Source: Escherichia phage ECML-183-2
Sequence record: OL631481.1
Strand: one strand, 5' to 3'
DNA: 64,000 nucleotides
The position numbers and the translations under genes were made by a program. Under the pieces are notes generated by a model. It had not been told where the DNA came from, ran no database searches, and saw only the letters and a list, made by a program, of their open reading frames with translations. Positions within the stretch are counted from its first letter, which is position 1. The number at the start of each line of letters is the position of its first letter. This document shows, piece by piece, positions 13,330 through 46,253 of this stretch.

Positions 13330-14363
13330 ACGTTTATTAACATATAAACTAAAATAAATCAAGAATTTTCTGATTTTATTTACGTTTAAGAGAAGGTGCT
13401 CAACATCCTACCGGATCGCCGTTGGCAATCCTCGGATATTTACGCCCCCATGATTAAGGTTTATCTCTTTTATAGCTCAACATTCCCGCCTGTGGCGGTA
13501 ACATTTCGCCCCCAAAATTATTGACTTTTATTCTATTATGTGCATAGTGTGCAATGTATCGGAATGATGATAATCATCCTCCCATTGCCCCCATAATTAT
13601 TGCCATGCTAATTGTTTCATTACGTAATTATTACAATGACTATTGTTATTGCGCTAATGTTATGATCTTGGTAATTACATATAATGCTAATAATAAGCCA
13701 GCGCAATAAGTGTAAGCGTCATTACGCTTGCAATTATTGCAAGCTACGCAGTAACAAGAAATAACCATCACCGATGGTTATGATTGTTGGGGTGTAGTTG
13801 GCTTATTATTAGCTCGCTATGTGTCCGGCATAGCGTGCTAATGATGACTCTGTGAATGATTCGTTTTGTAATGATTTCATTCAGGCACTATTTTGCTAAT
13901 AGTTATTATTTTAATGGTTTCGTTTGTTATTGTTCGTTAGTTGGTTGTTTTGTCGTGTTATCGTTATTTTGCTTAGTATTTATCATGGTTTGATTGTTTG
14001 TCGTTATCAATCATCTTGCTATTATTCCTTTGATTATGATTAGTTTGCTTATTGTTTTATGTTGTTTGTTGGTTAGTTGTTGCGAACTATTATCAACATT
14101 ATAATTATGCGCTTATATTGCATAGATAATCATGGGTAGATGATAATGGTTATCATTGCACTAGAAAGGAGGTAAAAGGGTGTTTTTGATGGTTTGTTGT
14201 TGGTTGTTGATCGATTTTAACCGCTCTAAATAGCTCTCTAACAGCCTGTTGCCCTGGGATGTATGGTTATTCGTTTAATGGTCGATTAGCTCGATACCGT
14301 GATTTATTCAGTTTTGTTCTGTGTCGGTTTTTCATAGGCGAAAGCTATCAACATTGTTCGGGC

Positions 14364-14390
14364 AAAAAGAAAGGGCGCTTTGTGCGCCCT
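14364..14390 (-). terminator. rho-independent terminator closing the minus-strand array
   Basis: hairpin AGGGCGC-tttgt-GCGCCCT followed on the minus strand by TTTCTTTTT. Confidence 0.55.
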
Positions 14391-14405
14391 GGTATGAAAT
14401 GTTAT

Positions 14406-14788
14406 TTACTGATAAGCTGGATCGTTTGTTATATCAATCCAATGAGATAAATTAATTTTATTTTTTGCTTTCATTTTCTCGATCAAACGTTCGGCTAATG
14501 TCTCGGAACGAATATAAACGTTTTCGCTAAAATCTTGCCCCGTTTCTTCGTCGATCATCTCACGATATTCGATTTTTCCGATAAACGCGTGATTCAGCGC
14601 ATAAGTTTTACCCGTGTACCAGTTATGCAAATGGATCTCACATTTATAATCATCGCTATACCCTTCGGTTGTTCTAACTTCAACCAGGTCGCCTTTAAAC
14701 ACTGATAAGCACCACATAGGATCACGGTCTACAGCGCCGTTAAAGTCTTTACCGTTTACAGTCGCTGCCAGGTTGATGATATTGCTCA
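14406..14788 (-). CDS. hypothetical protein (127 aa)
   Basis: start set at ATG downstream of promoter 14822-14864; GAGG RBS. Confidence 0.5.
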
Positions 14789-14821
14789 TGGTGATTCCTC
14801 GTTTACCGTTTAAAATGATTT

Positions 14822-14864
14822 GCCCTACGTGATAAATAATAATGCAAGCGTGATCCGGTGTCAA
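14822..14864 (-). promoter_or_regulatory. early promoter cassette (variant without GC hairpin)
   Basis: minus strand TTGACA-N17-TATTAT then conserved ttatcACGTAGGGC leader. Confidence 0.55.
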
Positions 14865-15038
14865 TAGGTAAAATTGTAAAGATTTGATAGTTTGTTCCTT
14901 TGATGTTTTGTTGTTTGATAGGCGTTAGTTATCAATATATAGCGGGGTCTTCCGGTGATTATCTTCCCCTGCTCCCAGGTGCCGCCCGTTCAATAAGTAT
15001 AACAAAAAATAGGACTATTGCAAGCCCTATTTATTATC

Positions 15039-15173
15039 TTAAAACCAGGTGCCAACCGTTTCCAATAGGTCACTGACTACAAGGACAACACTGATCAGCA
15101 CATGTTCAACCATGAAAGGGATAAGCGCCAGCGTTGCTACTACGATCCCCATTGTGATGATTACCTTTCTCAT
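15039..15173 (-). CDS. small hydrophobic peptide (44 aa)
   Basis: ATGA start/stop overlap with upstream gene; hand-translated, two hydrophobic segments. Confidence 0.3.
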   Translation of the reverse strand: MRKVIITMGIVVATLALIPFMVEHVLISVVLVVSDLLETVGTWF

Positions 15174-15460
15174 TGTTGGCGGTTTACGTAAGCTTTACCG
15201 TTTACGGTCATCGGTATGGCCTCAAGGTCTGGATCTTCCTTAAGGTCGCGTGCAAGCTCACCGCAGCGGATACCCTCGAATCCGTAGTACTCTGTTGTGC
15301 CGTCCTGGAAAGTTTTAGCGGCAAGGCATAGGCGATAATTAACGCCGATCCGGTTTATTGCGTTGATATCGGTTAGCGTGATGGATTCTGGCAACTCATT
15401 AGCCAGTACAGGCGCGTTAATACCAACAACCAGGGCAACTACTGCGATCATCTTTTTCAT
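15170..15460 (-). CDS. secreted protein with signal peptide (96 aa)
   Basis: MKKMIAVVALVVGINAPVLA N-terminus. Confidence 0.5.
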   Translation of the reverse strand: MKKMIAVVALVVGINAPVLANELPESITLTDINAINRIGVNYRLCLAAKTFQDGTTEYYGFEGIRCGELARDLKEDPDLEAIPMTVNGKAYVNRQQ

Positions 15461-15514
15461 GCGTCTATCCTCTTCCTATTGCGTTTAATGGGGCGTTACC
15501 GCCCCGCTTATGGT

Positions 15515-15751
15515 TTATTGATTGATGTTATGATGAAAGTTATTTTCTTCAATAGCTTTTAAAATAAAAGCCGTGATCGCTTTCGTGTCTACTTGTTCGA
15601 ACGTATCAGAATAAGCCCAATAATAATCATCCCCTACTTTCGGCGGGTAAACCTGGACAAGGAGATCGCCACCTGGTTGATCTATAAGCTCAACATGTAA
15701 GCCGGATGATTCAGCGGTTTTAACGGCGTTTAATACTGTTGCAATACTCAT
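15515..15751 (-). CDS. hypothetical protein (78 aa)
   Basis: AAAGGAAAAG RBS; preceded by GC hairpin. Confidence 0.5.
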   Translation of the reverse strand: MSIATVLNAVKTAESSGLHVELIDQPGGDLLVQVYPPKVGDDYYWAYSDTFEQVDTKAITAFILKAIEENNFHHNINQ

Positions 15752-15795
15752 AATCTTTTCCTTTCTGATGTGGGGCGTTGCCGCCCCTTTGTTGA

Positions 15796-16095
15796 TTAGA
15801 TCGCTGTTTCCAGTAGTTCGGCTAACGTCTTACCGCCTGATAGTTGGTCTAACGTTTGCTCTTCTGGCAAGAAATTAGCTGATATTAATCCGACTTGATT
15901 TCCTTTGTGCCAATTAGCTTGACGGATGATTCCATCCTTTAAAGATTTTACCGCCATTGTGCAACCGTCGCCAAATGATTCATTTTTATGATCCATTACT
16001 TCATAAGCGCCCAGCTTGCTGCTGTTAGGCACCATTAACGCGAATACATCACCAACAACCAGCTTTTCTACGGTAACAATAGCGATAGTTTCCAT
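15796..16095 (-). CDS. hypothetical protein (99 aa)
   Basis: first gene downstream of cassette 16115-16170. Confidence 0.5.
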   Translation of the reverse strand: METIAIVTVEKLVVGDVFALMVPNSSKLGAYEVMDHKNESFGDGCTMAVKSLKDGIIRQANWHKGNQVGLISANFLPEEQTLDQLSGGKTLAELLETAI

Positions 16096-16114
16096 TTTAC
16101 TTTCCTCATTATCG

Positions 16115-16170
16115 GCGGCACCATTGCCGCCCTACGCATTAAATATAAGTTATCTAAGAGATTAGATCAA
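16115..16170 (-). promoter_or_regulatory. promoter plus leader-hairpin cassette
   Basis: minus strand TTGATC-N16-TTATAT, leader GCGTAGGG and hairpin GCGGCAATGGTGCCGC. Confidence 0.55.
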
Positions 16171-16173
16171 GGA

Positions 16174-16365
16174 TTATTTTGTAAAGATTACAGCTTCATC
16201 AAAATTTTCAACATAGTAAGCAAGCTCTTCATTTGCTGCAACCATTCCTAAAAGTTGGCTATAAGATAAACCTTTGATCCCTTCCTCGTTGTTTAATGCT
16301 TCGATGATTTCATCAACGGGCGCAAAAAACATGTTATTCGATTCCAGGTAGGAGATGGTTTTCAT
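16174..16365 (-). CDS. hypothetical protein (63 aa)
   Basis: downstream of cassette 16387-16442. Confidence 0.5.
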   Translation of the reverse strand: MKTISYLESNNMFFAPVDEIIEALNNEEGIKGLSYSQLLGMVAANEELAYYVENFDEAVIFTK

Positions 16366-16386
16366 AATGTTTACCTTTTTCGGGGA

Positions 16387-16442
16387 GCGGCACCATTGCC
16401 GCCCTACGTGGTAAATATTAGCACACTGGCGATCTGTGTCAA
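16387..16442 (-). promoter_or_regulatory. promoter plus leader-hairpin cassette
   Basis: TTGACA-N16-TAATAT, ttaccACGTAGGG, hairpin GCGGCAATGGTGCCGC. Confidence 0.6.
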
Positions 16443-16448
16443 TACTTT

Positions 16449-16835
16449 TTATTCAATATAAATCAAATTATCTTCACCAATGTAAGCCGACACGTTCGGC
16501 ATAAACTTAGCTGCATTGGTTAGGCGGTTCGCCGTGTTAGTGGTGTATATTTCAGGGCGATCCCAAAAGCCTACGCCGTGACCGTTACGGGTAAAATGTA
16601 AATCATTCCCGATCTGGTTGGCTGTTGCGCCGTCGCTCATTGCCTCAGAGATAGCGGCAAGATTAGCATTAATAAAGGCTGTTACATCCTGGGCGATCCG
16701 TTGATGGGCTTGATCTGAAAAATCATAATCAGTCATGTCATCTATAAAATTACCTTCATGATCCCTTGCGGATTCAGCAAAAATAAAGGCTTCTTTATAA
16801 CCGTTGATGATTTCAATAATGATTTCTGTTTTCAT
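16449..16835 (-). CDS. hypothetical protein (128 aa)
   Basis: ATGA-coupled to upstream ORF. Confidence 0.5.
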   Translation of the reverse strand: MKTEIIIEIINGYKEAFIFAESARDHEGNFIDDMTDYDFSDQAHQRIAQDVTAFINANLAAISEAMSDGATANQIGNDLHFTRNGHGVGFWDRPEIYTTNTANRLTNAAKFMPNVSAYIGEDNLIYIE

Positions 16836-17056
16836 GCTGTACGCTCGACAATAATAATAGTTTGCGGGATCTCGTTTTCTACTACTAACAAGGCTTTTTT
16901 CTGTGTGATAGATATTTTAACACGTTGTAAAGTAGCGGTGAAATCTTTCATTTCATTATGCGCGGACTTCGTGCAATGCCAGATCTCAGGCTTACCAACT
17001 TGTAAGCCGCGTAAAAATTCCGTTTTGCCTGTTTTGTTCGTGATCATTTGTTTCAC
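16832..17056 (-). CDS. hypothetical protein (74 aa)
   Basis: AAGGTGA RBS. Confidence 0.5.
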   Translation of the reverse strand: MKQMITNKTGKTEFLRGLQVGKPEIWHCTKSAHNEMKDFTATLQRVKISITQKKALLVVENEIPQTIIIVERTA

Positions 17057-17057
17057 C

Positions 17058-17162
17058 TTAACCGATACCGTGGGAAGATAGGATCATGTTAGCCATAGTT
17101 GCAACCACTCCAACCGATAACGCCAGGCCCACTATTACAACCGTGAAAATTTTCTCTAACAT
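17058..17162 (-). CDS. small hydrophobic peptide (34 aa)
   Basis: track ORF trimmed to ATG downstream of the cassette; GAGGG RBS. Confidence 0.35.
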   Translation of the reverse strand: MLEKIFTVVIVGLALSVGVVATMANMILSSHGIG

Positions 17163-17180
17163 GATTCTACCCTCATTAAT

Positions 17181-17242
17181 GGGCGTTGCACCATTGCCCC
17201 GCCCTACGTAATACACTTTACCAGATAACAAATTATTGTCAA
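17181..17242 (-). promoter_or_regulatory. promoter plus leader-hairpin cassette
   Basis: TTGACA-N16-TAAAGT, ACGTAGGG, GC hairpin. Confidence 0.55.
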
Positions 17243-17306
17243 GGTTTATTTTACTTCCCAAACGGAAAATTCACTGCGTGGCGGGAAGTATTCCCCGCCT
17301 TATTAA

Positions 17307-17477
17307 TTACTCTTCATCGTCGCCGTTATAGTATTCAATGCCGTTTTCATCGGTTACGGTGATGTTAACGCCACCGATAGCAACACGATCACGGGCAAAC
17401 GTCATAGCTTCATTTAAATCTTCAGACCAAAAAATATTGTGACCTTTGCGCGATACATAAAACATAGTCGGGATCAT
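17307..17477 (-). CDS. hypothetical protein (56 aa)
   Basis: track ORF trimmed to ATG (MIPTMF) downstream of hairpin. Confidence 0.45.
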   Translation of the reverse strand: MIPTMFYVSRKGHNIFWSEDLNEAMTFARDRVAIGGVNITVTDENGIEYYNGDDEE

Positions 17478-17499
17478 GATTTGTTTCTCTTCTGTTGTG

Positions 17500-17561
17500 A
17501 GCGGTGGACCATTCCGCCGCCCTATGTGGTAAACTTTACTACGTTGTTTGCCTGTTGTCAA
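17500..17561 (-). promoter_or_regulatory. promoter plus leader-hairpin cassette
   Basis: TTGACA-N17-TAAAGT, ttaccACATAGGG, hairpin GGCGGCGGAATGGTCCACCGC. Confidence 0.6.
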
Positions 17562-17562
17562 A

Positions 17563-17847
17563 TTATTTTTTAATGTTTTGCCCTACAAAATTGATCACTT
17601 CCTTAAGCTGTCTCTCTGTCATGATCGTACCTGGTAACTCTTCTTTAATTTCTTCCGGTAAATAGATATTACCGCGCCAGGTTAACAAACAACCGTTTTG
17701 ATCTTCGCAGATAGAATAAGAAAACATCCACTCGCAATCATTTTCAAGCTCCCAAAAACACAAAAAGTCTTCTTTCCCTAAGTTTTCAACGGTTAAACAT
17801 AATCCGCGACGTGCTGCATAATTAGTCAGGCTTTTTGTGATTTTCAT
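17563..17847 (-). CDS. hypothetical Cys-rich protein (94 aa)
   Basis: track ORF trimmed to ATG (MKITKS) downstream of hairpin. Confidence 0.5.
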   Translation of the reverse strand: MKITKSLTNYAARRGLCLTVENLGKEDFLCFWELENDCEWMFSYSICEDQNGCLLTWRGNIYLPEEIKEELPGTIMTERQLKEVINFVGQNIKK

Positions 17848-17869
17848 GATTTTTCTCTCTTCTTGTGAG

Positions 17870-17924
17870 CGGCACCATTGCCGCCCTACAAGATACATAT
17901 TATCAGACTAGGCGGACTTGTCAA
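17870..17924 (-). promoter_or_regulatory. promoter plus leader-hairpin cassette
   Basis: TTGACA-N16-TAATAT, hairpin GCGGCAATGGTGCCGC. Confidence 0.6.
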
Positions 17925-17925
17925 A

Positions 17926-18036
17926 CTATTTTTTCTTTTTCTTTGCTTCCAACCGTCTAAGGTTACGGCTTGACTTATTTCGCAAGGCGCTTAGATCGTC
18001 GTACCCTTTCCATGCTTGCATATCTTTCGGATTCAT
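17926..18036 (-). CDS. small basic protein (36 aa)
   Basis: hand-translated MNPKDMQAWKGYDD...; AAGGGG RBS. Confidence 0.3.
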   Translation of the reverse strand: MNPKDMQAWKGYDDLSALRNKSSRNLRRLEAKKKKK

Positions 18037-18045
18037 GTTATCCCC

Positions 18046-18207
18046 TTACTTGTTAGCCGGATCATATACCAGGACCGCGCCGCTTGCTTTCACGCTTTCC
18101 GCTTCATAGTTGCGCAGATCGTTTTCTGTAAGGTTGAGCGCGATCACTTCCTCGATCTCAACGTCAGCGGCAAGGGCGATCTCTTTGATAATGTCTGTTG
18201 TTTTCAT
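18046..18207 (-). CDS. small protein (53 aa)
   Basis: hand-translated MKTTDIIKEIALAADVE...; AAGGTG RBS. Confidence 0.35.
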   Translation of the reverse strand: MKTTDIIKEIALAADVEIEEVIALNLTENDLRNYEAESVKASGAVLVYDPANK

Positions 18208-18217
18208 AGTACGCACC

Positions 18218-18337
18218 TTATAAGATGATTGATAAGATAGTGATAACGAAAGCGATTATACTGATGGCAAATGTCATCTTTTTACCTTCGGATACTGCCG
18301 GATTTTCTACCGTGTATTCTACTGTGTACTTGCTCAT
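18218..18337 (-). CDS. small membrane-anchored peptide (39 aa)
   Basis: hand-translated; GAGAGG RBS; C-terminal hydrophobic helix. Confidence 0.3.
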   Translation of the reverse strand: MSKYTVEYTVENPAVSEGKKMTFAISIIAFVITILSIIL

Positions 18338-18360
18338 CGTGTAATCCTCTCGTTTGCTTT

Positions 18361-18418
18361 GGGAACTATTCCCGCCGCCTTATGAATTAAATATACACTA
18401 TCTCAAAATGATTGCAAG
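18361..18418 (-). promoter_or_regulatory. promoter plus leader-hairpin cassette
   Basis: TTGCAA-N16-TATATT, hairpin GGCGGCGGGAATAGTTCCC. Confidence 0.5.
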
Positions 18419-18434
18419 CCTTTTTCTAAATTAT

Positions 18435-18719
18435 TTATGCAGTAAACAAACCATCATTTACAACGGCGGCGATGATCTCCCGTGCCATTGATTCAGGGAA
18501 AGGGGCGCTATAGTCCTGGCTTGTCTCATCGGTATCAGTGATCCAATGATAAGCTAACGAGTAAAAGCCTTTACTAACTGTTTTCAGTGAGATGATGATC
18601 ACTCGGTCAAGCTTATTGGTGAATGTTGCCGTTAATGTGTTACCCTCCTGCGTCATGTTGGACAAGTAAGCGGGATCATTAATCAGGGAAAACATTAGCA
18701 CGGTGTTAGCTTTACTCAT
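18435..18719 (-). CDS. hypothetical protein (94 aa)
   Basis: track ORF trimmed to ATG (MSKANTV) downstream of hairpin. Confidence 0.5.
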   Translation of the reverse strand: MSKANTVLMFSLINDPAYLSNMTQEGNTLTATFTNKLDRVIIISLKTVSKGFYSLAYHWITDTDETSQDYSAPFPESMAREIIAAVVNDGLFTA

Positions 18720-18737
18720 GATTGCATCCTCAAAGGG

Positions 18738-18794
18738 GCGCGGCACCATTGCCGCCCTACACGATAACTATAACACAATGTAAAACAGGATCAA
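18738..18794 (-). promoter_or_regulatory. promoter plus leader-hairpin cassette
   Basis: TTGATC-N16-TATAGT, hairpin GCGGCAATGGTGCCGC. Confidence 0.55.
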
Positions 18795-18997
18795 CCTTTA
18801 TTTTTCCACGGTGTCAGCTTGTTAATCATTGGTGATAAATAGCGTTTACCAACGTAAAACAGTACGCCAACTGATGCAACGGCGGCGATCTCATGTAAGG
18901 AGGAAGGTCGCGCGGTGTCATAATAGGTACCAATAATAGCAATAGCGGCTACTGCGGCAATGTCTGTAATAATTTTTTCTTGTTTTGCGGTGATCAT
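18791..18997 (-). CDS. small membrane protein (68 aa)
   Basis: track ORF trimmed to ATG (MITAKQ); two hydrophobic segments. Confidence 0.45.
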   Translation of the reverse strand: MITAKQEKIITDIAAVAAIAIIGTYYDTARPSSLHEIAAVASVGVLFYVGKRYLSPMINKLTPWKNKG

Positions 18998-19019
18998 AAT
19001 ATTTACCTTTTTGTATGGT

Positions 19020-19078
19020 GGGGGAACTATTCCCCGCCTGATGTAATACAGTTTAACAGGTCCGGTTATGGTGTCAAC
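19020..19078 (-). promoter_or_regulatory. promoter plus leader-hairpin cassette
   Basis: TTGACA-N16-TAAACT, hairpin GGCGGGGAATAGTTCCCC. Confidence 0.55.
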
Positions 19079-19083
19079 CACTT

Positions 19084-19269
19084 TTAAAGATATTTTATAT
19101 TGATAACGTTTTCAGGTTTAACCTTGTTGTGATGTGCATCAACATAGATCAAACCATCGTCAGAAAAGCCCAGGATCACGCCCTGCGCAATAAAACCGTA
19201 TTCGTCACGGTAACGCACGGCTATTTTTAACGTTGCGTTGTAGGCTGTTTTAAGCTCGTTTAAAGTCAT
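19084..19269 (-). CDS. hypothetical protein (61 aa)
   Basis: AGAGGA RBS. Confidence 0.45.
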   Translation of the reverse strand: MTLNELKTAYNATLKIAVRYRDEYGFIAQGVILGFSDDGLIYVDAHHNKVKPENVINIKYL

Positions 19270-19290
19270 TTTTGTTTATCCTCTACATGT

Positions 19291-19318
19291 AAAAAGAAAG
19301 GGCGCTTGGTGCGCCCTT
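19291..19318 (-). terminator. intra-array terminator or attenuator hairpin
   Basis: hairpin AAGGGCGC-accaa-GCGCCCTT followed by TTTCTTTTT on the minus strand. Confidence 0.4.
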
Positions 19319-19324
19319 GTTATG

Positions 19325-19471
19325 TTAATCCTCTAAATCCATCCAATTATATTTGTCACTCTTCCCGCGCTTTGTTTTATTACGCTTGTCGCCTTTTCGG
19401 ATCACTTCCTCGTTCCAGGCCTTGCGGATCTTGGAAGATTGAATTTTTTCTGCGCGATTAGATGTATTCAT
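19325..19471 (-). CDS. small basic protein (48 aa)
   Basis: hand-translated MNTSNRAEKIQSSKIRK...; AAGAGGA RBS. Confidence 0.35.
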   Translation of the reverse strand: MNTSNRAEKIQSSKIRKAWNEEVIRKGDKRNKTKRGKSDKYNWMDLED

Positions 19472-19491
19472 TTTGTTTCCTCTTTATATGA

Positions 19492-19544
19492 GCGGCACCA
19501 TTGCCGCTATATTATTAATTTAAACTGTTTTGTAAAATTGTCAA
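19492..19544 (-). promoter_or_regulatory. promoter plus leader-hairpin cassette
   Basis: TTGACA-N16-TAAATT, hairpin GCGGCAATGGTGCCGC. Confidence 0.5.
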
Positions 19545-19550
19545 GGTTTA

Positions 19551-19904
19551 TCATTGATAAGAGCAAGCAAGGATCACGCCTGCAATATAAAGCCAATAAT
19601 TTTCCCTTTCTCGTTGGATTTTATCATCGCTGCTATTCTCTTTAATGTATCCCCAGGATGTTAACAGGCGATCAATTTCCCAATATTCGAAAGCGATATT
19701 GATATCTGATGGCAAGCCTTGTAACCATGATGCAAGTGCTTTAACAATACTATAATTAAAACGTGATTGGTTATCAGGGTACCAGTACTCGGAATTAAAA
19801 CGGTGCATCAATTCCGCGATCTTCTCTTTTTCGGTTGTAATACCGTAATCATTAAAATCGATAGCGGCAAGGATGTACTCTTTAATTGCATTTTGTGCTT
19901 TCAT
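19551..19904 (-). CDS. hypothetical protein (117 aa)
   Basis: AAGAGAGAAAG RBS. Confidence 0.5.
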   Translation of the reverse strand: MKAQNAIKEYILAAIDFNDYGITTEKEKIAELMHRFNSEYWYPDNQSRFNYSIVKALASWLQGLPSDINIAFEYWEIDRLLTSWGYIKENSSDDKIQRERENYWLYIAGVILACSYQ

Positions 19905-19922
19905 GGTCTTTCTCTCTTTTTG

Positions 19923-19979
19923 AGCGGGAACTATTCCCGCCCTACGTGTAACAGTTTACTAAAAATTAAATCCGTGTCA
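19923..19979 (-). promoter_or_regulatory. promoter plus leader-hairpin cassette
   Basis: TTGACA-N16-TAAACT, ACGTAGGG, hairpin GCGGGAATAGTTCCCGC. Confidence 0.6.
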
Positions 19980-19983
19980 AGCT

Positions 19984-20205
19984 TTATTTTGTTACTACCA
20001 TTTGGTACCCTGTTTCAATGTTAGTAAATACTGTTATCCCGTCCTGGCGTTCACTCATTAGCATACAAGGCGCTAACATCCTTTCTACTGCCTTGCACTC
20101 ATTGTAAACGGCGGTTATGTCTCCTGCGGCCTTGTCTTCTGTGGTGAATGTATCGTTTACGTAAACCTGACCAGCGACAACGGCGACAATAGCGAAAGTG
20201 ATCAT
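19984..20205 (-). CDS. hypothetical protein (73 aa)
   Basis: starts MITFA; AAGGAA RBS. Confidence 0.45.
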   Translation of the reverse strand: MITFAIVAVVAGQVYVNDTFTTEDKAAGDITAVYNECKAVERMLAPCMLMSERQDGITVFTNIETGYQMVVTK

Positions 20206-20240
20206 GATGTTTCCTTGTTAGTAGTGGTTTCTCTTCTCTA

Positions 20241-20276
20241 TAGCGCCCATTGTAAGGCGCTATAACGAAAAGTCAA
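20241..20276 (-). promoter_or_regulatory. variant promoter with -10 inside a hairpin
   Basis: TTGACT-N16-TACAAT; hairpin TATAGCGCC....GGCGCTATA. Confidence 0.4.
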
Positions 20277-20279
20277 CGA

Positions 20280-20447
20280 TTATTTTTTAAGGCTTAAAGT
20301 ACCTAACTTGTCAGCATGACGCAGACCAGGGAAGATCCATTTGCCTGATTCATCTTTCACCGGGGCTTTAAGCGTAGCGCCCAGGTTGGCGGCGTTAACT
20401 TTACGTGCAACGTTGCGAGCGGCTTCACGGGTAGCGAAAGTGATCAT
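20280..20447 (-). CDS. small protein (55 aa)
   Basis: hand-translated MITFATREAARNVARK...; AGAGGA RBS. Confidence 0.35.
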   Translation of the reverse strand: MITFATREAARNVARKVNAANLGATLKAPVKDESGKWIFPGLRHADKLGTLSLKK

Positions 20448-20471
20448 GATATTTTCCTCTTCTCTTTGTTA

Positions 20472-20533
20472 GGCGGTGGACCATTCCGCCGCCTTGATGT
20501 AATACAGTTTACTTTATTTTTGCAGTATTGCAA
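20472..20533 (-). promoter_or_regulatory. promoter plus leader-hairpin cassette
   Basis: TTGCAA-N16-TAAACT, hairpin GGCGGCGGAATGGTCCACCGCC. Confidence 0.5.
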
Positions 20534-20539
20534 GCGGTT

Positions 20540-20752
20540 TTATGAAATAATCGTCAAAGTAAAATTGTAATCACCTGATTGATACAATACTTTATCACCG
20601 AACGTTCCAACACGTTTAACATTGCAATATATACCCATAACACTTTTTACATCTTTGATATTCTTCACGCCTGTAATATCTTTATTAAAATGATCGTGAT
20701 CAGAAAATAAAACTTGTTTTGCATTTTTCAACAAGGTGCGGATATTAGCCAT
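20540..20752 (-). CDS. hypothetical protein (70 aa)
   Basis: downstream of cassette. Confidence 0.5.
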   Translation of the reverse strand: MANIRTLLKNAKQVLFSDHDHFNKDITGVKNIKDVKSVMGIYCNVKRVGTFGDKVLYQSGDYNFTLTIIS

Positions 20753-20775
20753 CGTGATAATCTCTCTTCTGTTGT

Positions 20776-20833
20776 GAGCGGCACTATTGCCGCCCTACGT
20801 AATACAGTTTACTCTTTTTCTTTCCCGTGTCAA
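20776..20833 (-). promoter_or_regulatory. promoter plus leader-hairpin cassette
   Basis: TTGACA-N16-TAAACT, ACGTAGGG, hairpin GCGGCAATAGTGCCGC. Confidence 0.6.
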
Positions 20834-20842
20834 CAATCTTTT

Positions 20843-21070
20843 TCAGATTAATTCATCCAGGCATAACAGGCGATCAACGTTGAGATCGGTTAGGCTGATG
20901 GTTGGCACCTGGTAGGATTCGATGTACTCGACGCTCGCATATTCTCCAAAATTAGCAATAGCCCACTTATTCAAGATCTCACATACATCATTAATCTTTT
21001 TGTTTGTTACAACTGCTACAACCTGGGAACTGCCAACGGTGCCGGATACACGAACAATATTGATAGCCAT
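20843..21070 (-). CDS. hypothetical protein (75 aa)
   Basis: downstream of cassette. Confidence 0.5.
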   Translation of the reverse strand: MAINIVRVSGTVGSSQVVAVVTNKKINDVCEILNKWAIANFGEYASVEYIESYQVPTISLTDLNVDRLLCLDELI

Positions 21071-21092
21071 AATCTTTAATCTCTCTGTTGTT

Positions 21093-21152
21093 GGCGGGAA
21101 ACCATTTCCCGCCCTATGTGATACATCTTACACTAATTTTAAACGTTGTCAA
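21093..21152 (-). promoter_or_regulatory. promoter plus leader-hairpin cassette
   Basis: TTGACA-N16-TAAGAT, gtatcACATAGGG, hairpin GGCGGGAAATGGTTTCCCGCC. Confidence 0.6.
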
Positions 21153-21162
21153 CTGTTTTTTA

Positions 21163-21402
21163 TTACATTCCAACCATCGCGGCACGGATCGCAGTAGTGC
21201 TATATTTGAAACCGTCTGGAGTTTTATCTTGTCCAGTTTGTTCCAGAAAAAGCATCATATCCCGCGCCGCATCATTACGATTAGCATTAGCGTTAATAAA
21301 ATCCAAGGCCAACCGATACAATGATTCATCGTTATTAATCCAAAGGCTTACATTCCAATGAGTTTTGTTTTTGTGACCGTTGTACATTTTAGATTTAGCC
21401 AT
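21163..21402 (-). CDS. hypothetical protein (79 aa)
   Basis: downstream of cassette. Confidence 0.5.
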   Translation of the reverse strand: MAKSKMYNGHKNKTHWNVSLWINNDESLYRLALDFINANANRNDAARDMMLFLEQTGQDKTPDGFKYSTTAIRAAMVGM

Positions 21403-21426
21403 GATTTTTCTCTCTTTTTCAGTGAG

Positions 21427-21485
21427 GCGGGAAGTGTTCCCGCTCTCTATGTAATACAGTTTACTCTTTTTATTCGTGCTGTCAA
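21427..21485 (-). promoter_or_regulatory. promoter plus leader-hairpin cassette
   Basis: TTGACA-N16-TAAACT, hairpin GCGGGAACACTTCCCGC. Confidence 0.55.
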
Positions 21486-21491
21486 TGCTTT

Positions 21492-21857
21492 TTATAAATC
21501 TTTTTTACGTTTTACATCGCTTGCATGACTGTATACAGTGATCCCATTGTCACGGCAAAAACGGGAAAGATACGCGCCGCGTGAAAATTCCTTGCCCTCA
21601 AGGTTGATAACCTTGCTAAATTCTTCCAGGGCGACGGTATCAAAATGATCACCATAGCCATATTGAAACGGAACGTTAACCACCTCGATCAGTTTACCGC
21701 CGATCTCAACGTCAACCAGTAAAGAAAAATATGTGTTACCGTAGGACTGTTGAAACCAGCGACGGGCACTAATATGCACCGCCTCAATGCTGGATAATTC
21801 AATTTTAGCCGTGTTAGCCAGGGTAGCATAAGCGGAAACATTGATATTAATAGCCAT
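21492..21857 (-). CDS. hypothetical protein (121 aa)
   Basis: downstream of cassette. Confidence 0.5.
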   Translation of the reverse strand: MAININVSAYATLANTAKIELSSIEAVHISARRWFQQSYGNTYFSLLVDVEIGGKLIEVVNVPFQYGYGDHFDTVALEEFSKVINLEGKEFSRGAYLSRFCRDNGITVYSHASDVKRKKDL

Positions 21858-21883
21858 GGTGTCACTCTCTCTTTTTGGTTAGT

Positions 21884-21935
21884 GGGAAGTATTCCCGATA
21901 AAAGTTATTATGCTTATACTATCACTCATTGTCAA
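21884..21935 (-). promoter_or_regulatory. promoter plus leader-hairpin cassette
   Basis: TTGACA-N17-CATAAT, hairpin GGGAATACTTCCC. Confidence 0.5.
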
Positions 21936-21954
21936 TAGTATAAGACTAAAACTT

Positions 21955-22134
21955 TTAACGATAATCATTATAGGCTTTATTGACCTGGCGAATGTAACAT
22001 TCGAAAGCAAGATCAATGTATTCGTATTCACGCACATAATCACCATAGGTCACTACATACATTTTTAAAGTTTCCTCATAAGCCAGGAGGATCGAATCTA
22101 AACCTATAATCTCAGTTTTTGCAATGATAGCCAT
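21955..22134 (-). CDS. small protein (59 aa)
   Basis: hand-translated MAIIAKTEIIGLDS...; below the 60-aa cutoff of the supplied track. Confidence 0.4.
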   Translation of the reverse strand: MAIIAKTEIIGLDSILLAYEETLKMYVVTYGDYVREYEYIDLAFECYIRQVNKAYNDYR

Positions 22135-22155
22135 GATGTTAACCTTTTATTGTTG

Positions 22156-22211
22156 GCGGCACCATTGCCGCCCTACGTGATAAACTATACCAGAAGTTTA
22201 AACAGTGTCAA
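22156..22211 (-). promoter_or_regulatory. promoter plus leader-hairpin cassette
   Basis: TTGACA-N16-TATAGT, ttatcACGTAGGG, hairpin GCGGCAATGGTGCCGC. Confidence 0.6.
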
Positions 22212-22217
22212 CCGTTT

Positions 22218-22580
22218 TTATTCGTAAATTTTACCGCTTTCGGCCCATACCATAACGCGGCGCATACTATCCCAAGTGTTTTGATCCAGGTTTAAGCCGT
22301 GCAACTCTTCGGTACTTCCCAGACCAGGTACCGCTTTGTTGTAAGTCGCATATAAGCGCCCTTGATACTCATACGCCAGAGTAAGATCCGTTTGAATCAT
22401 CTTTTTAAGCATAGCATTAAGCATCATATTAGCGGCATGTTGATCACGTTTTAGCGGTAACATGTCAATAAGGGCGCGATAAGCTGAAACATGAATATCA
22501 ACCGTTTCACGTGGTAAATTTTTCATATCATCGCGGAAGGACACCAGGTTTAACATGATAGTATTGATTTGCTTGCTCAT
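22218..22580 (-). CDS. hypothetical protein (120 aa)
   Basis: downstream of cassette. Confidence 0.5.
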   Translation of the reverse strand: MSKQINTIMLNLVSFRDDMKNLPRETVDIHVSAYRALIDMLPLKRDQHAANMMLNAMLKKMIQTDLTLAYEYQGRLYATYNKAVPGLGSTEELHGLNLDQNTWDSMRRVMVWAESGKIYE

Positions 22581-22601
22581 TGTGTTACCCTTTTTTGTTT
22601 T

Positions 22602-22662
22602 GGCGGGGAAGTATTCCGCCGCCCTATGTGATACATCTTATCAGATTAAAAAACGTTGTCAA
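22602..22662 (-). promoter_or_regulatory. promoter plus leader-hairpin cassette
   Basis: TTGACA-N16-TAAGAT, gtatcACATAGGG, hairpin GGCGGCGGAATACTTCCCCGCC. Confidence 0.6.
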
Positions 22663-22670
22663 GAATATTT

Positions 22671-22766
22671 TTAGAAAATAATAGCCGCTACTACAATCCA
22701 AAATGGAACGGCTAGAATGATAGCGTTAATCGTTCCAACCGTCAAGCTATTTTCTTTATTAATCAT
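22671..22766 (-). CDS. micro membrane peptide (31 aa) with its own cassette
   Basis: hand-translated MINKENSLTVGTINAIILAVPFWIVVAAIIF; AAGAGG RBS. Confidence 0.25.
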   Translation of the reverse strand: MINKENSLTVGTINAIILAVPFWIVVAAIIF

Positions 22767-22795
22767 TGTAAGCCTCTTGCATAATTTCACTATGA

Positions 22796-22852
22796 GCGGC
22801 ACCATTGCCGCCCTACGTGGTAAATATTATGCCAGTGGCGGCGATATGTCAA
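22796..22852 (-). promoter_or_regulatory. promoter plus leader-hairpin cassette
   Basis: TTGACA-N17-TAATAT, ttaccACGTAGGG, hairpin GCGGCAATGGTGCCGC. Confidence 0.6.
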
Positions 22853-23406
22853 AGACTATTTTCAAAGTTTTCTAGTGCGATCCTTTTTTCTTCCTCTGTC
22901 GGCTGATAATCAGGAAAAGCATCAACACACAACAACGGCGGGATCTCTTCGTACTCTTCCTCTTCCGTTGTCTCCTCGTCTTCCTCCTGGGCTATGGCTG
23001 CAATTTTGGCTAATTTTCTTTCAGCTTGAATCAATTTACCATCAAGTACGTTTTTTGCCATGTTGTAAGCGGTCCAGGTGATGCGCTTACTTTCCAGTGC
23101 TTGATCAAGCGCCGCTATCTTGCTGGGGTATTCATCCAGGACACGAAAAGCCGGATCAACTTTGTACAAAGGATTATCTTTCGCGCCGTCGCTCGCATCT
23201 TCCGCACTGGATAAATCAGCGTTACCATTTGCCAGCCAGCCAGGGCGCACATAACGCGCTTTTACGTTGCCGTTACTACGTGCTAATCTGTTACCTATTT
23301 GCTCACCACTATATCCCGTGGATTCATCGATAAGATGATCGGGAATGATGCGCGGATCATCTGCTTCATGTTTTACCCAAGACTGGATCACATATTCGCG
23401 GCCCAT
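22849..23406 (-). CDS. hypothetical protein with acidic C-terminal tail (185 aa)
   Basis: start moved to ATG (MGREY) after GGTGG RBS. Confidence 0.5.
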   Translation of the reverse strand: MGREYVIQSWVKHEADDPRIIPDHLIDESTGYSGEQIGNRLARSNGNVKARYVRPGWLANGNADLSSAEDASDGAKDNPLYKVDPAFRVLDEYPSKIAALDQALESKRITWTAYNMAKNVLDGKLIQAERKLAKIAAIAQEEDEETTEEEEYEEIPPLLCVDAFPDYQPTEEEKRIALENFENSL

Positions 23407-23407
23407 A

Positions 23408-23665
23408 TTAACCACCTTTTTTCAACAATTGGCATACTTTAAAAAGACTTGCTGAATCCTTGCAAGGGTAGAAAGATGTACGATAATCACGTACGCCAAC
23501 CTTGCGGATCTCGATGTTCTCGCATGTTGTTTGATCAAAGATATTTATTTCATCACGCCCCCTTATATAAACATAGTGGGGATGTATTAACGCATATTTT
23601 GCTAATCTGTAAAAAGCGTTATCTTTGAACGCGATCACGTGACCTTTTAATTTGATGTAAAACAT
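23408..23665 (-). CDS. hypothetical protein (85 aa)
   Basis: GGTGG RBS; downstream of cassette. Confidence 0.5.
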   Translation of the reverse strand: MFYIKLKGHVIAFKDNAFYRLAKYALIHPHYVYIRGRDEINIFDQTTCENIEIRKVGVRDYRTSFYPCKDSASLFKVCQLLKKGG

Positions 23666-23683
23666 TCTACCACCTTACAAATA

Positions 23684-23738
23684 GCGGGAACTATTCCCGC
23701 TTTATGTAACATATTAACAAATTATTCGTTAATGTCAA
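23684..23738 (-). promoter_or_regulatory. promoter plus leader-hairpin cassette
   Basis: TTGACA-N16-TAATAT, hairpin GCGGGAATAGTTCCCGC. Confidence 0.55.
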
Positions 23739-23741
23739 ACC

Positions 23742-24014
23742 TTAAAGCAAAAACGCTACATCTTGCGCTTTTAGTGTAGTATCAACCATTTTCGGGCTTT
23801 TATAATCAACAAAGCGCGCGGTTTTTTCAATAGCGAAACCGAGATAATCTTGTTTATTGAATTTACATTCTTTCTTAAATGTTTCCCGCGCCACGGTGAT
23901 CGCTGCGTCCAGGGATAAACGCCCGTCAATGTTGATATTTGCGAAAGATCCGCCACCGCTCATAGGTTTACCAGTGGTGCCAGCTACGATCATTGTTGCG
24001 CTATATGATGCCAT
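23742..24014 (-). CDS. hypothetical protein (90 aa)
   Basis: track ORF trimmed to ATG (MASYSA) downstream of hairpin. Confidence 0.5.
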   Translation of the reverse strand: MASYSATMIVAGTTGKPMSGGGSFANINIDGRLSLDAAITVARETFKKECKFNKQDYLGFAIEKTARFVDYKSPKMVDTTLKAQDVAFLL

Positions 24015-24038
24015 GATTATAATCTCTCTTCTGTTGTG

Positions 24039-24100
24039 AGCGGCTGGACCATTCCGCCGCCCTATGTGATACATCTTATCAGGTTGTTGTTTGTTGTCAA
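24039..24100 (-). promoter_or_regulatory. promoter plus leader-hairpin cassette
   Basis: TTGACA-N16-TAAGAT, gtatcACATAGGG, hairpin GGCGGCGGAATGGTCCAGCCGC. Confidence 0.6.
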
Positions 24101-24106
24101 TACTTT

Positions 24107-24304
24107 TTATTCTATTCCTGCAATTTGATTAACGCGCTTGCATTTTGTAGCGTGCTGGTCTTCTGTAATGACTCCCATTTCTAACAGGGAATCAATGAAA
24201 GATAAAACCGTTTCATGATCATCCTGGGGATGACTGAACTCAGTAAAACCGTTTACCACGACGCTGATTTGTCCTGCTTTCGCTACTATGTGCAATGTTG
24301 CCAT
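24107..24304 (-). CDS. hypothetical protein (65 aa)
   Basis: track ORF trimmed to ATG (MATLHIV) downstream of hairpin. Confidence 0.5.
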   Translation of the reverse strand: MATLHIVAKAGQISVVVNGFTEFSHPQDDHETVLSFIDSLLEMGVITEDQHATKCKRVNQIAGIE

Positions 24305-24325
24305 GATTTTAACTCCAAATAATGA

Positions 24326-24382
24326 GCGGCACCATTGCCGCCCTACGTGGTAAATATTATGCCGCCACCTGGCGAACGTCAA
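24326..24382 (-). promoter_or_regulatory. promoter plus leader-hairpin cassette (first of array)
   Basis: TTGACG-N17-TAATAT, ttaccACGTAGGG, hairpin GCGGCAATGGTGCCGC. Confidence 0.55.
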
Positions 24383-24491
24383 TCACTTTTTCAATCTTTT
24401 TTATTTTCTTTTTGCTTGCTATATATAAAAGAAAGGGCTATCATCTTTCTACCGCGCCAACCAGGGCGCACATCAAAGAAAGGGCGATACC

Positions 24492-24758
24492 ATGACAAAT
24501 ACTACATTACACCTTATGCACTCATTGGGCTGGCAAGGCGGCACGGTGCACCAGGTAGCAAGCGCAACGGGCTTAAAGGTTGAAACAGTTCTCAACCTGG
24601 GCGATCATAAGGTGGAAGAAATAGATCATTTTGATACGTTCGCAAATGGTTATCTATGGGCTTGCAGTGGCGGCGGGGAAAGCAAGATACCACCAGGGGC
24701 GCGGGGCGATATGTATTTTTGGTTAGGTGTCCTATCCTGGCAAGAAAACAAAAAATAA
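24492..24758 (+). CDS. hypothetical protein (88 aa), possible small DNA-binding regulator
   Basis: only plus-strand ORF at the head of the array; AAGGG RBS; candidate extended -10 (TGcTATATA) upstream. Confidence 0.4.
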   Translation: MTNTTLHLMHSLGWQGGTVHQVASATGLKVETVLNLGDHKVEEIDHFDTFANGYLWACSGGGESKIPPGARGDMYFWLGVLSWQENKK

Positions 24759-24760
24759 TC

Positions 24761-24789
24761 TTGACAAGCCCAGGGATCGGGCTTATACT
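24761..24789 (+). promoter_or_regulatory. sigma70-like promoter with no CDS downstream
   Basis: TTGACA-N17-TATACT on the plus strand. Confidence 0.5.
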
Positions 24790-24795
24790 GTTTTA

Positions 24796-25042: not shown

Positions 25043-25081
25043 CTTATCAAATAAGAATCAATCTCATTTATAAACCTAAAT

Positions 25082-46177: not shown

Positions 46178-46236
46178 TTGACATAGTTCTTAAAAAGAGT
46201 AAGATATATCACATGAAGCGGGGAATAGTTCCCCGC
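46178..46236 (+). promoter_or_regulatory. promoter plus leader-hairpin cassette (plus-strand copy) in front of TerC gene
   Basis: TTGACA-N16-TAAGAT, atatcACATGAAG, hairpin GCGGGGAATAGTTCCCCGC; same architecture as minus-strand array. Confidence 0.6.
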
Positions 46237-46253
46237 AAAGAGAGGAGAAAAGA

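Follow-up and report, generated by a model that had tools for sequence, protein, structure and literature searches.

According to Emory, Bouvet and Belasco in 1992, the hairpin in the 5′ untranslated region of ompA reportedly stabilises its mRNA, and Mertens et al. are said to have reached the same conclusion in 1996 for the leader stem-loop of T7 gene 10, in both cases by half-life measurement. Protection by a 5′ hairpin classically needs about 4 unpaired nucleotides (nt) or fewer at the 5′ end; intercistronic hairpins of the REP type (malE-malF) also protect the mRNA upstream of them. Stem-loops of another sort belong to the promoter-early-stem-loop (PeSL) elements of RB49/phi1, T4/PST and KVP40/nt-1, where they lie mostly between the −35 and −10 hexamers or over the −10, are often polyG/polyC, and terminate upstream transcription about as strongly as rrnB T1 in reporters (PMC2839356; PMC4122927). 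For rV5 and Certrevirus, the available text of the published accounts describes 13–33 predicted sigma-70-like early promoters with an UP-like A-tract and mentions no RNA polymerase gene of the phages' own (PMC3606486; PMC7344957), the Certrevirus promoters being clustered among short hypothetical open reading frames (ORFs) (PMC7344957). Here we analyse a 64,000-nt stretch of Escherichia phage ECML-183-2 (sequence record OL631481.1), the window, which carries a tandem array of cassettes in which a sigma-70-type promoter is followed by a GC-rich hairpin and a small gene. We lean, if only slightly, towards a reading in which each cassette would be at once an early promoter, a 5′-terminal protective hairpin and a recombination handle.

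The array occupies the minus strand, where strand reading together with profile and pattern scans located 24 sigma-70-type promoters from 24382 to 14789. Numbered from the upstream end, units c01 to c12 have −35 hexamers starting at 24382, 24100, 23738, 22852, 22662, 22211, 21935, 21485, 21152, 20833, 20533 and 20276, and units c13 to c24 at 19980, 19544, 19077, 18794, 18417, 17924, 17561, 17242, 16442, 16170, 15023 and 14864. The −35 is exactly TTGACA in 18 of the 24 units, the spacer between the hexamers measures 16–17 nt, and the −10 takes the form TAnnnT (TAATAT, TAAGAT, TAAACT, TAAAGT, TATAGT and others) everywhere except in c07, where it is CATAAT. A GC-rich hairpin follows in 21 of the units, its stem starting 6–12 nt, and mostly 10–12 nt, past the −10; of the other three, c12 has its hairpin overlapping the −10, c23 is without a family-type hairpin, and c24 has the conserved block and no hairpin. 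That block, TAGGGCGG, occurs exactly 14 times in the window, against 0.48 ± 0.66 times in shuffles of the window, and all 14 copies lie on the minus strand between 16.1 and 24.3 kb; GCGGCAATGGTGCCGC is present in 8 copies plus 1 close variant, and the TAGGG block is wholly missing from c03, c07 and c14. Three units (c01, c04 and c21) are identical from the −10 TAATAT through the end of the core stem, ...GTGCCGC. A profile of the cassette run with nhmmer gave E-values as low as 1e-20, and a covariance model of block plus hairpin, searched over all 64 kb with filters off, matched the array and the plus-strand site 46210–46242 only.

Past the hairpin, at a distance of 15–26 nt, comes a purine-rich Shine-Dalgarno region and then an ORF of 31–127 amino acids (aa), sometimes two to four ORFs. 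The array ORFs carry gene annotation in related phages. Of the 10 largest proteins encoded in the array, nine, seven of them first-ORF products, match function-unknown PHROG families along most of their length; a 79-aa array protein matches about half of its PHROG family profile. The original prediction of a cassette array in a variable region of small genes is thus borne out; its figure of 23 is correct within the counting of weak copies (24 promoters, 21 hairpins), and the further copy that it placed at 46178–46236 on the plus strand is a complete cassette ahead of a TerC-family gene. The spacing it gave, 200–500 base pairs (bp), holds for most units (190–500 bp in 19 of the 23 intervals), but the full range is somewhat wider, at 159–1147 bp.

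In an alignment anchored on the hexamers, information content reaches 2.0 bits at the TTG of the −35 and at A2 and T6 of the −10, and stands at 1.0–1.4 bits in an A-tract 5–10 nt upstream of the −35. Hexamers, spacer and information content agree with strong sigma-70-type promoters that have an A-rich upstream tract, and we regard this assignment as highly probable. The 16 nt after the −10 hold 0.5–1.4 bits, with a maximum at TAGGGCG, and T5, G11, G12, A14, A15 and T19 are invariant across the 22 window copies. Variation had been expected to concentrate in the hairpin and the −10; it is instead greatest in the spacer between the hexamers (0.1–0.4 bit) and in the leader past the hairpin, the stem base GCGG/CCGC and the apical AAT.GT being near-invariant and the stem middle variable. 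The 8th position past the −10 is G or A in 18 of the 22 copies and is preceded directly by a pyrimidine in 18 of the 22; a pyrimidine-purine (Y-R) context with a 7-nt discriminator is the usual setting of start sites in E. coli. We infer that transcription would start at this conserved purine 8 nt past the −10, 3–5 nt ahead of the stem. Since the hairpin lies downstream of the −10, it is predicted to stand at the 5′ end of the transcript, in line with what had been claimed for it.

Folding was applied to 111 distinct cassettes, drawn from the window and from 12 related loci. Their first paired base is mostly found 10–12 nt past the −10, and 90% of them form a hairpin of −10 kcal/mol or lower in the 35 nt beginning 5 nt past the −10, with a mean z-score (z) of −3.5 against dinucleotide shuffles; the sense strand folds better in 81 cases and the antisense strand in 28. 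For eleven leaders, the stretch between predicted start and AUG folded at −14 to −16.6 kcal/mol (z −1.9 to −4.6), with a 5′ unpaired tail of 3–5 nt and a segment between hairpin and AUG that is essentially unpaired, the exception being one 2-pair helix in c21.

Alignment of 22 copies with MAFFT and RNAalifold put the 3′ arms out of register and recovered 3 pairs only, and a covariance-model alignment was therefore used (118 matches, 52 distinct sequences; 4 of the 16 seed rows, x13–x16, are real sequences shortened by hand for a gap-free seed, and the counts are made on real matches only). In this alignment of the cassettes, a check proposed together with the original prediction, 94.5% of the cells are paired across the 52 distinct sequences, a level reached by none of 500 shuffles, and pairing drops to 36–56% when the partners are slid by 1–3 columns; the stem is conserved in the manner of RNA. 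Pair 18–37 is CG in 31 sequences and GC in 21, and pair 8–48 is GU in 25, GC in 17 and AU in 5, which speaks for folding of the sense strand because a G-U would be an A-C mismatch on the other strand. There are at least 8 stem classes, with stems of 6–10 pairs and the loops AUGG, UAG, UGG, UAC and CAC. Across these classes, with the flipping pair and the tolerated G-U, structure is maintained over sequence, as in a stabiliser, base and apex being conserved in sequence as well. The comparison indicates that the hairpin is most likely a folded single strand, namely sense-strand RNA, and its transcription can be considered probable.

The same pairing data bear on an alternative in which block and hairpin act on DNA, either as a phage-specific promoter, the label derived from the PHIRE program, or as an operator at which a phage repressor shuts the early promoters. 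The public annotation of phAPEC8 does say promoter, and an imperfect palindrome extends over +3 to +25, where a bound protein would block polymerase; PHIRE, however, reports only repeated 20-mers, a consensus sigma-70 promoter already lies directly upstream, and no RNA polymerase gene was found among the ten large window ORFs tested, nor is one reported in the available text on rV5 and Certrevirus. Arms that change together (CG to GC) and a commonest outer pair of G-U fit a folded strand and not a duplex site, and the stem varies in length from 6 to 10 pairs. A duplex operator was rejected on sequence grounds, and action at the DNA level is, in our judgement, very improbable.

Regarding PeSL elements, the analogy drawn in the original prediction stands for gene shuffling, setting and promoter, but not for anatomy. 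Both systems repeat a module of about 70–100 bp that combines a strong early promoter of sigma-70 type and its AT-rich upstream tract with a stem-loop and a Shine-Dalgarno sequence; the genes behind the module are small, of unknown function and located in a variable region, and in both the homology between copies leads to gene insertions and deletions between close relatives. Here, however, the stem lies past the −10, inside the unit's own transcript, in 21 of the 22 hairpin-bearing copies (c12 excepted), the hairpins mostly lack the T-run of a terminator, base and apex are conserved, and the lineage is Stephanstirmvirinae, not T4-like. Because the defining position of the stem-loop is not found, we do not class the element as a PeSL.

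The hairpins could still be attenuators that insulate each unit from upstream transcription, as in the T4-type elements, whose stem-loops terminate about as well as rrnB T1 in reporters. With 24 tandem promoters in one direction read-through is to be expected, c01 and c03 have T-rich tails, the −10 of c12 is covered by its hairpin, and the −35 of c23 by a terminator-like one. Yet four or more T in the 8 nt past the stem occur only in c01 (5) and c03 (4); the other hairpins have 0–3 and run into A/C/G-rich sequence, the usual tail being CUCACAACAGAAGAG. Since 19 of 21 are without a T-run, the hairpins are not intrinsic terminators, and that candidate was rejected. A hairpin downstream of its own promoter would moreover attenuate its own transcripts too, and clear terminator-like sites exist apart from the cassettes, at 19318–19298 and 14390–14372. 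Insulation by attenuation is improbable.

Other known elements fit no better. An RNase III site of the T7 early-region type needs about 20 bp of mostly double-stranded RNA, for which stems of 6–10 pairs are too short, and a lambdoid nut site (boxA plus boxB, with a 5-bp stem and an A-rich GNRA-like pentaloop) was rejected as well, the loops being unlike boxB and no boxA being seen. The Rfam 15 covariance models gave no match at E ≤ 1 over 13500–25500. BLAST of one cassette against 5,426 E. coli genomes gave no match either, which argues against derivation from the host. As with REP elements, some of the hairpins stand between cistrons and could block exonucleases; REP elements, however, are host elements with a consensus of their own, whereas those described here are without similarity to E. 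coli DNA, and a host REP element was rejected. Lambdoid morons resemble the cassettes in that genes travel as self-contained expression units, but morons include a terminator, and homology between regulatory parts is not considered to be what moves them.

The cassettes resemble the leaders of ompA and T7 gene 10 in having a stable hairpin, predicted to lie a few nt from the 5′ end, and an open ribosome-binding region after it; in T7 gene 10 the stem-loop forms from the conserved initial transcribed sequence of a phage promoter class. The effect of those leaders was reportedly measured on single genes, whereas here the role is deduced from position, and about 24 repeats stand behind host-type promoters, with sequence conserved beyond the needs of pairing.

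The window is of Phapecoctavirus type (phAPEC8-like). Megablast of the array region and of 36–50 kb matched Phapecoctavirus genomes (DE16, KKP 3954, Mt1B1_P17, tuntematon, ukendt, anhysbys and phAPEC8-type) at 95–98% identity, with 80–100% of the query covered; these phages, E. coli myoviruses with genomes near 150 kb, belong to the subfamily Stephanstirmvirinae. Other products encoded in the window are NrdD, a helicase of UvrD type, TerC and TelA, as well as a protein with Toprim and DnaB_C domains resembling the T7 gp4 primase-helicase, so that an earlier remark on T7-like replication genes was reasonable. A look into other phage genomes, again as proposed at the outset, found the same element in Phapecoctavirus, Justusliebigvirus (muut), Vequintavirus (slur12) and Certrevirus (PBES 02), with the same layout and with CAC(G/A)TAGGGCGG equally far from the −10. 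The PBES 02 and slur12 copies have the same TAGGGCGG block plus hairpin, whereas the available text of the rV5 and Certrevirus papers describes the −35/−10/UP part only: hairpin and stem-loop are absent from that of the Certrevirus paper (PMC7344957), and that of the rV5 paper uses 'stem-loop' for terminators only (PMC3606486). Three PBES 02 copies (1828–1909, 2880–2960 and 4358–4416) have, besides the 5′ leader hairpin, an extra GC-rich hairpin in the spacer (GCCGGGAACCGTCCCGGC), which is the PeSL position. An exact-pattern scan of IMG/VR for TTGACA-N16/17-TAnnnT-N7/9-TAGGGCGG returned 64 loci, with true family members only in contigs of about 97–153 kb; most loci were single matches belonging to one unrelated promoter of contigs of about 40 kb, about as many as chance would give with 17 fixed bases, and were set aside. 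Separately, about 36 nt (tgtgctattatttatc.cgtagggcggcaa) of the T5-like Klebsiella phage DevonBitter (Demerecviridae; 5996–6036), without a hairpin, are common with a PBES 02 cassette (5999–6060); the likeness may reflect a piece of a cassette passed between phage families that are unrelated, or may be fortuitous.

The sequence family is already known in part, being annotated as promoters in the phAPEC8 RefSeq record NC_020079, of which 78 kb were surveyed. No covariance-model match falls within 14–64 kb of phAPEC8; in the part surveyed, every copy found belongs to the array, which straddles the two ends of the record. Five features of NC_020079, labelled 'putative host dependent promoter determined with MEME', correspond to the −35 to −10 part; ten, labelled 'putative promoter determined with PHIRE', correspond to (G/A)TAGGGCGGCAATGGTGCCG or variants, and MEME and PHIRE features abut or overlap at two places. 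Most PHIRE features begin exactly at the purine predicted as +1, and 9 of the 10 coincide with a covariance-model match. Since PHIRE reports repeated 20-mers, its label 'promoter' does not stand for a tested function. The annotation thus concerns the same family at a homologous place, but treats the block as a second, phage-specific promoter and does not record the hairpin, the position in the transcript, the covariation or the role in gene shuffling. Most likely, what phAPEC8 carries under the label 'PHIRE promoters' are leaders that are transcribed, a reading that corrects the public annotation.

Comparison of the array with seven close relatives revealed 13 distinct insertion, deletion or replacement events. 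Cassettes make up 25% of the array and take 13 of the 26 breakpoints (binomial p 0.005); the remaining ones are at other gene boundaries and none is deep inside any gene. Single junctions weigh more than this enrichment, for much of which selection for viable junctions could account. The 63-aa gene 16365–16174 is missing from phAPEC8, ESCO13, KKP 3954 and tuntematon, and in these phages c21 supplies the upstream half and c22 the downstream half of the joined cassette, the changeover lying within an identical 22 nt, cgtagggcggcaatggtgccgc. phAPEC8 is also without the c20 promoter and keeps block and hairpin, the junction being at the T of TAGGGCGG. To judge from these junctions, at least one gene gain or loss is the product of a crossover inside the conserved block. 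The 59-aa c06 gene and the c07 promoter are both gone from KKP 3954, SKA64 and anhysbys, where the sequences join at ATGGCTAT, the first codons common to the two genes; in two of these phages, KKP 3954 and anhysbys, a c06-type cassette, with another hairpin class, stands directly ahead of the c07 gene. These codons open the genes of c06 (22134), c07 (21857) and c09 (21070), ATGGCTAA opens those of c08 and c10 (20752), and ATGATCACTTTCGCTA those of c11 (20447) and c12 (20205), though the proteins then diverge; cassette homology therefore sometimes extends into coding sequence. In addition, DE16 (10331–10473) and anhysbys have, opposite 24317–24374 of the window, an unrelated 142-nt leader in place of the −10, block and hairpin of the first cassette, ahead of the same gene.

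Orthologous genes are preceded by different hairpin classes in different phages, as seen for the genes of c02, c09, c10, c18 and c19. Since the same gene carries different classes across phages, the classes are exchangeable modules and not gene-specific signals, and the proposal that they mark regulatory subsets was rejected. Hairpins also precede cistrons without a promoter of their own, which favours a role in RNA over one in initiation.

The evident exchange between copies, together with sub-families that have long identical stretches (c01, c04, c21), is what would be seen if the hairpin had no function and merely travelled with a good promoter among recent duplicates homogenised by gene conversion. 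The position of the hairpin, however, is kept despite diverged surroundings in c03, c07, c14, Certrevirus and Justusliebigvirus, and the stems show compensatory substitutions while the adjacent spacer is free to vary; we hold a functionless hairpin to be distinctly improbable. A true contribution of the cassettes to gene shuffling is, on balance, fairly probable.

Starting from what the sequences themselves display (the cassette anatomy, a stem conserved in the manner of RNA, hairpins at a fixed position that lack terminator tails, a crossover inside the block and swapped hairpin classes), we propose that E. coli RNA polymerase with sigma-70 would use the cassette promoters right after infection, starting at the conserved purine 8 nt past the −10 in its Y-R context. 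The nascent RNA would begin with (G/A)UA and fold immediately into the hairpin, 3–5 nt from its 5′ end. This 5′-terminal hairpin would limit 5′-end-dependent attack (RppH/RNase E) and would prevent the first part of the message from pairing with the ribosome-binding site, leaving the purine-rich leader unstructured, with the result that about two dozen small early genes would have uniformly high, context-independent expression. On read-through RNA the same hairpins, together with the promoterless intercistronic ones, may act as internal decay barriers. Because 25–85 bp are near-identical between copies, the module would also be a substrate for homologous recombination, by which genes and hairpins could be deleted, inserted and re-paired. 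The start site, the stabilising effect and the early timing are deductions in this scheme, and that stabilisation is the main role of the hairpin is a tentative suggestion, to which we give slightly less than even weight.

Several observations weigh against this combined promoter, stabiliser and recombination role. The covariation comes mainly from one flipping pair, in an alignment that the covariance model fitted to the structure and that is made up of related sequences. Half of the indel breakpoints are at other gene boundaries, the enrichment in cassettes could largely reflect the viability of junctions, and a crossover inside the block is shown by only one or two events. A start at the A six nt past the −10 would give a tail of 5–7 nt, which is too long for classical protection given the limit of about 4 nt. 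A full-text literature search with the motif strings and for transcript maps of the phage group returned nothing relevant. Finally, sequence conservation across two subfamilies extends to the unpaired (G/A)UA and to the GGGCGG arm, and the apical AAU(G/A)GU is near-invariant; a plain stabiliser leaves this conservation of the leader unexplained.

Because of that conservation, a factor recognising the leader retains a small probability. All early messages of ECML-183-2 and of the related Stephanstirmvirinae and Vequintavirinae would then share one 5′ tag made up of (G/A)UAGGGCGG and a hairpin with AAU(G/A)GU at its apex, read by a dedicated RNA-binding protein or nuclease of phage or host that would control the early regulon jointly, through timed shut-off, selective translation or the sparing of phage messages from a host-shut-off RNase. 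Conservation does extend to sequence besides structure, with the block kept in both subfamilies, the tag would sit at a fixed place at the predicted 5′ end, and in phAPEC8 block and hairpin stand without a promoter inside an operon. But a candidate binding protein was not identified, the apical sequences differ between classes and are freely swapped before the same gene, the TAGGG block is missing from three copies, and the conservation could stem from copying between cassettes. We consider such a shared tag unlikely, and equally so a factor that would time the decay or translation of the early regulon or tell phage from host mRNA during shut-off; if true, the tag would be a bacterial-virus counterpart of a common leader sequence.

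Should the start sites be as predicted, about two dozen early messages would have the same short structured 5′ end, and the cassette would be a compact natural design (strong promoter, 5′ hairpin, open ribosome-binding site) that could be reused as an expression part. The proposed role of promoter, protective hairpin and recombination handle would carry the notion of a regulatory cassette with a second use in recombination beyond T4-like phages, to unrelated therapeutic phages of E. coli, Salmonella and Cronobacter, and may explain whole-gene differences in the early regions of Phapecoctavirus genomes that are otherwise 95–97% identical.

The individual units, all on the minus strand, have TTGACA as −35 where no other hexamer is named. 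Unit c01 (24305..24382) consists of TTGACG 24382–24377, TAATAT 24359–24354, the block cacGTAGGG, a hairpin at 24343–24324 and an ATG at 24304 (65 aa); its leader folds with a free energy (ΔG) of −14.4 kcal/mol and z −2.9, its T-rich tail makes it one of the two terminator-looking copies, and its spacer holds a short version of the PBES 02 spacer hairpin, CGCCAGGTGGCG, at 24375–24362. In c02 (24015..24100), TAAGAT 24078–24073 and a hairpin at 24062–24038 (GGGCGGCGGAATGGTCCAGCCGCTC; ΔG −16.6, z −3.4) precede the ATG at 24014 (90 aa). The copy without TAGGG that follows, c03 (23666..23738), has TAATAT 23716–23711, a hairpin at 23701–23683 (AGCGGGAATAGTTCCCGCT) and an ATG at 23665 (85 aa), then a 185-aa ORF. 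The top covariance-model match, at 44 bits, is c04 (22767..22852), with TAATAT 22829–22824, a hairpin at 22813–22794 and an ATG at 22766 for a membrane-like protein of 31 aa. Next come c05 (22581..22662), with TAAGAT 22640–22635, a hairpin at 22623–22602 (GGCGGCGGAATACTTCCCCGCC) and an ATG at 22580 (120 aa), and c06 (22135..22211), with TATAGT 22189–22184, a hairpin at 22176–22152 and an ATG at 22134 (59 aa). Unit c07 (21858..21935) is degenerate, with CATAAT 21912–21907 and a weak hairpin at 21896–21884 (GGGAATACTTCCC, −5.5) ahead of the ATG at 21857 (121 aa).

In c08 (21403..21485), TAAACT 21463–21458 is followed by a hairpin at 21447–21424 (GAGAGCGGGAACACTTCCCGCCTC, z −4.6) and an ATG at 21402 (79 aa); in c09 (21071..21152), TAAGAT 21130–21125 by a hairpin at 21113–21093 (GGCGGGAAATGGTTTCCCGCC, z −4.2) and an ATG at 21070 (75 aa); and in c10 (20753..20833), TAAACT 20811–20806 by a hairpin at 20798–20774 and an ATG at 20752 (70 aa). 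Unit c11 (20448..20533) has TTGCAA, TAAACT 20511–20506, a hairpin at 20494–20471 (AGGCGGCGGAATGGTCCACCGCCT) and an ATG at 20447 (55 aa). The geometry of c12 (20206..20276) is deviant: behind TTGACT, its −10 TACAAT 20254–20249 lies within the loop of a hairpin at about 20264–20239 (TATAGCGCC..GGCGCTATA), which makes it the sole copy with a PeSL-like stem-loop position over the −10; the ATG is at 20205 (73 aa). Regular units follow in c13 (19905..19980; TAAACT 19958–19953, hairpin 19942–19922 (GGGCGGGAATAGTTCCCGCTC, z −4.0), ATG 19904, 117 aa) and c14 (19472..19544; TAAATT 19522–19517, hairpin 19508–19491, ATG 19471, 48 aa), and c15 (18998..19077) has TAAACT 19055–19050 and an imperfect hairpin at 19038–19017, with its ATG at 18997 (68 aa).

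Unit c16 (18720..18794) starts with TTGATC and has TATAGT 18772–18767, a hairpin from 18757 to about 18736 and an ATG at 18719 (93 aa). The weak unit c17 (18338..18417) combines TTGCAA, TATATT 18395–18390, TAAGGCGG and a partial hairpin at 18378–18356 (−7.8), ahead of an ATG at 18337 (39 aa) and two further small ORFs. Then come c18 (17848..17924; TAATAT 17902–17897, hairpin 17891–17863 with z −4.0, ATG 17847, 94 aa), c19 (17478..17561; TAAAGT 17538–17533, hairpin 17522–17499, ATG 17477, 56 aa) and c20 (17163..17242; TAAAGT 17220–17215, hairpin 17204–17181 (GGGCGGGGCAATGGTGCAACGCCC), ATG 17162, 34 aa), the last followed by ORFs ending at 16832 and 16449. In c21 (16366..16442), TAATAT 16420–16415 and a hairpin at 16408–16381 stand before the ATG at 16365 (63 aa), and in c22 (16096..16170), TTGATC, TATATT 16147–16142 and a hairpin at 16131–16114 stand before the ATG at 16095 (99 aa), from which 78-, 96- and 44-aa ORFs follow.

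As a promoter only, c23 (14865..15032) belongs to the array: a terminator-like hairpin and T-run at 15032–15007 lie over its −35 TTGCAA 15023–15018, and the roughly 125 nt between its −10 TATACT 15001–14996 and the next promoter hold no ORF, a stretch that could be a small RNA or a long leader. The last unit, c24 (14790..14864), has TATTAT 14841–14836 and the block cacGTAGGGC without a hairpin, ahead of an ATG at 14789 (127 aa); at the equivalent place some related phages have a full hairpin. The isolated cassette on the plus strand, 46178..46253, comprises TTGACA 46178–46183, TAAGAT 46200–46205 and a hairpin at 46218–46236 (GCGGGGAATAGTTCCCCGC, z −4.4), followed by an ATG at 46254 for a TerC-family membrane protein.

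Hairpins without a promoter occur on the minus strand as well. One of family type (TAAGGCGGGGAATACTTCCCGCC), at 17278..17302, comes directly after a stop codon, and its site in related phages holds a hairpin, a Shine-Dalgarno region and a small ORF. Two intercistronic hairpins with GNRA loops, at 15787–15772 (GGGGCGGCAACGCCCC) and 15506–15489 (GGGGCGGTAACGCCCC), lie on either side of the 78-aa gene 15751–15515, which is missing from anhysbys with breakpoints 15768|15505, at these hairpins; they are a second type of repeat marking gene-sized indels. Of the terminator-like sites, also on the minus strand, the one within the array (19298..19318) consists of AAGGGCGCACCAAGCGCCCTT and TCTTTTT, and the one closing it (14372..14390) of AGGGCGCACAAAGCGCCCT and TTCTTTTT. 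A 61-aa ORF on the minus strand, 19084–19269, starts 28 nt past the hairpin at 19318–19298 and is without a recognisable promoter of its own, so termination there is perhaps only partial.

Just upstream of the array, 25018–25348 holds three repeats of CTAAATGAGAATGATTATCATTT, spaced by 29 nt and partly palindromic, and then two AT-rich repeats of 72 nt; the pattern looks like that of iterons, and a 'repeat_region' is annotated at the matching place in related phages. A divergent promoter-like site is present on the plus strand at 24761–24789. Downstream of the array terminator, about 1.2 kb (approximately 13170–14400) contain no ORF of 65 aa or more and have A/C-rich runs (caacaaccaacaacaaacc); this region is 93–97% identical in related phages, that is, it is conserved non-coding DNA.

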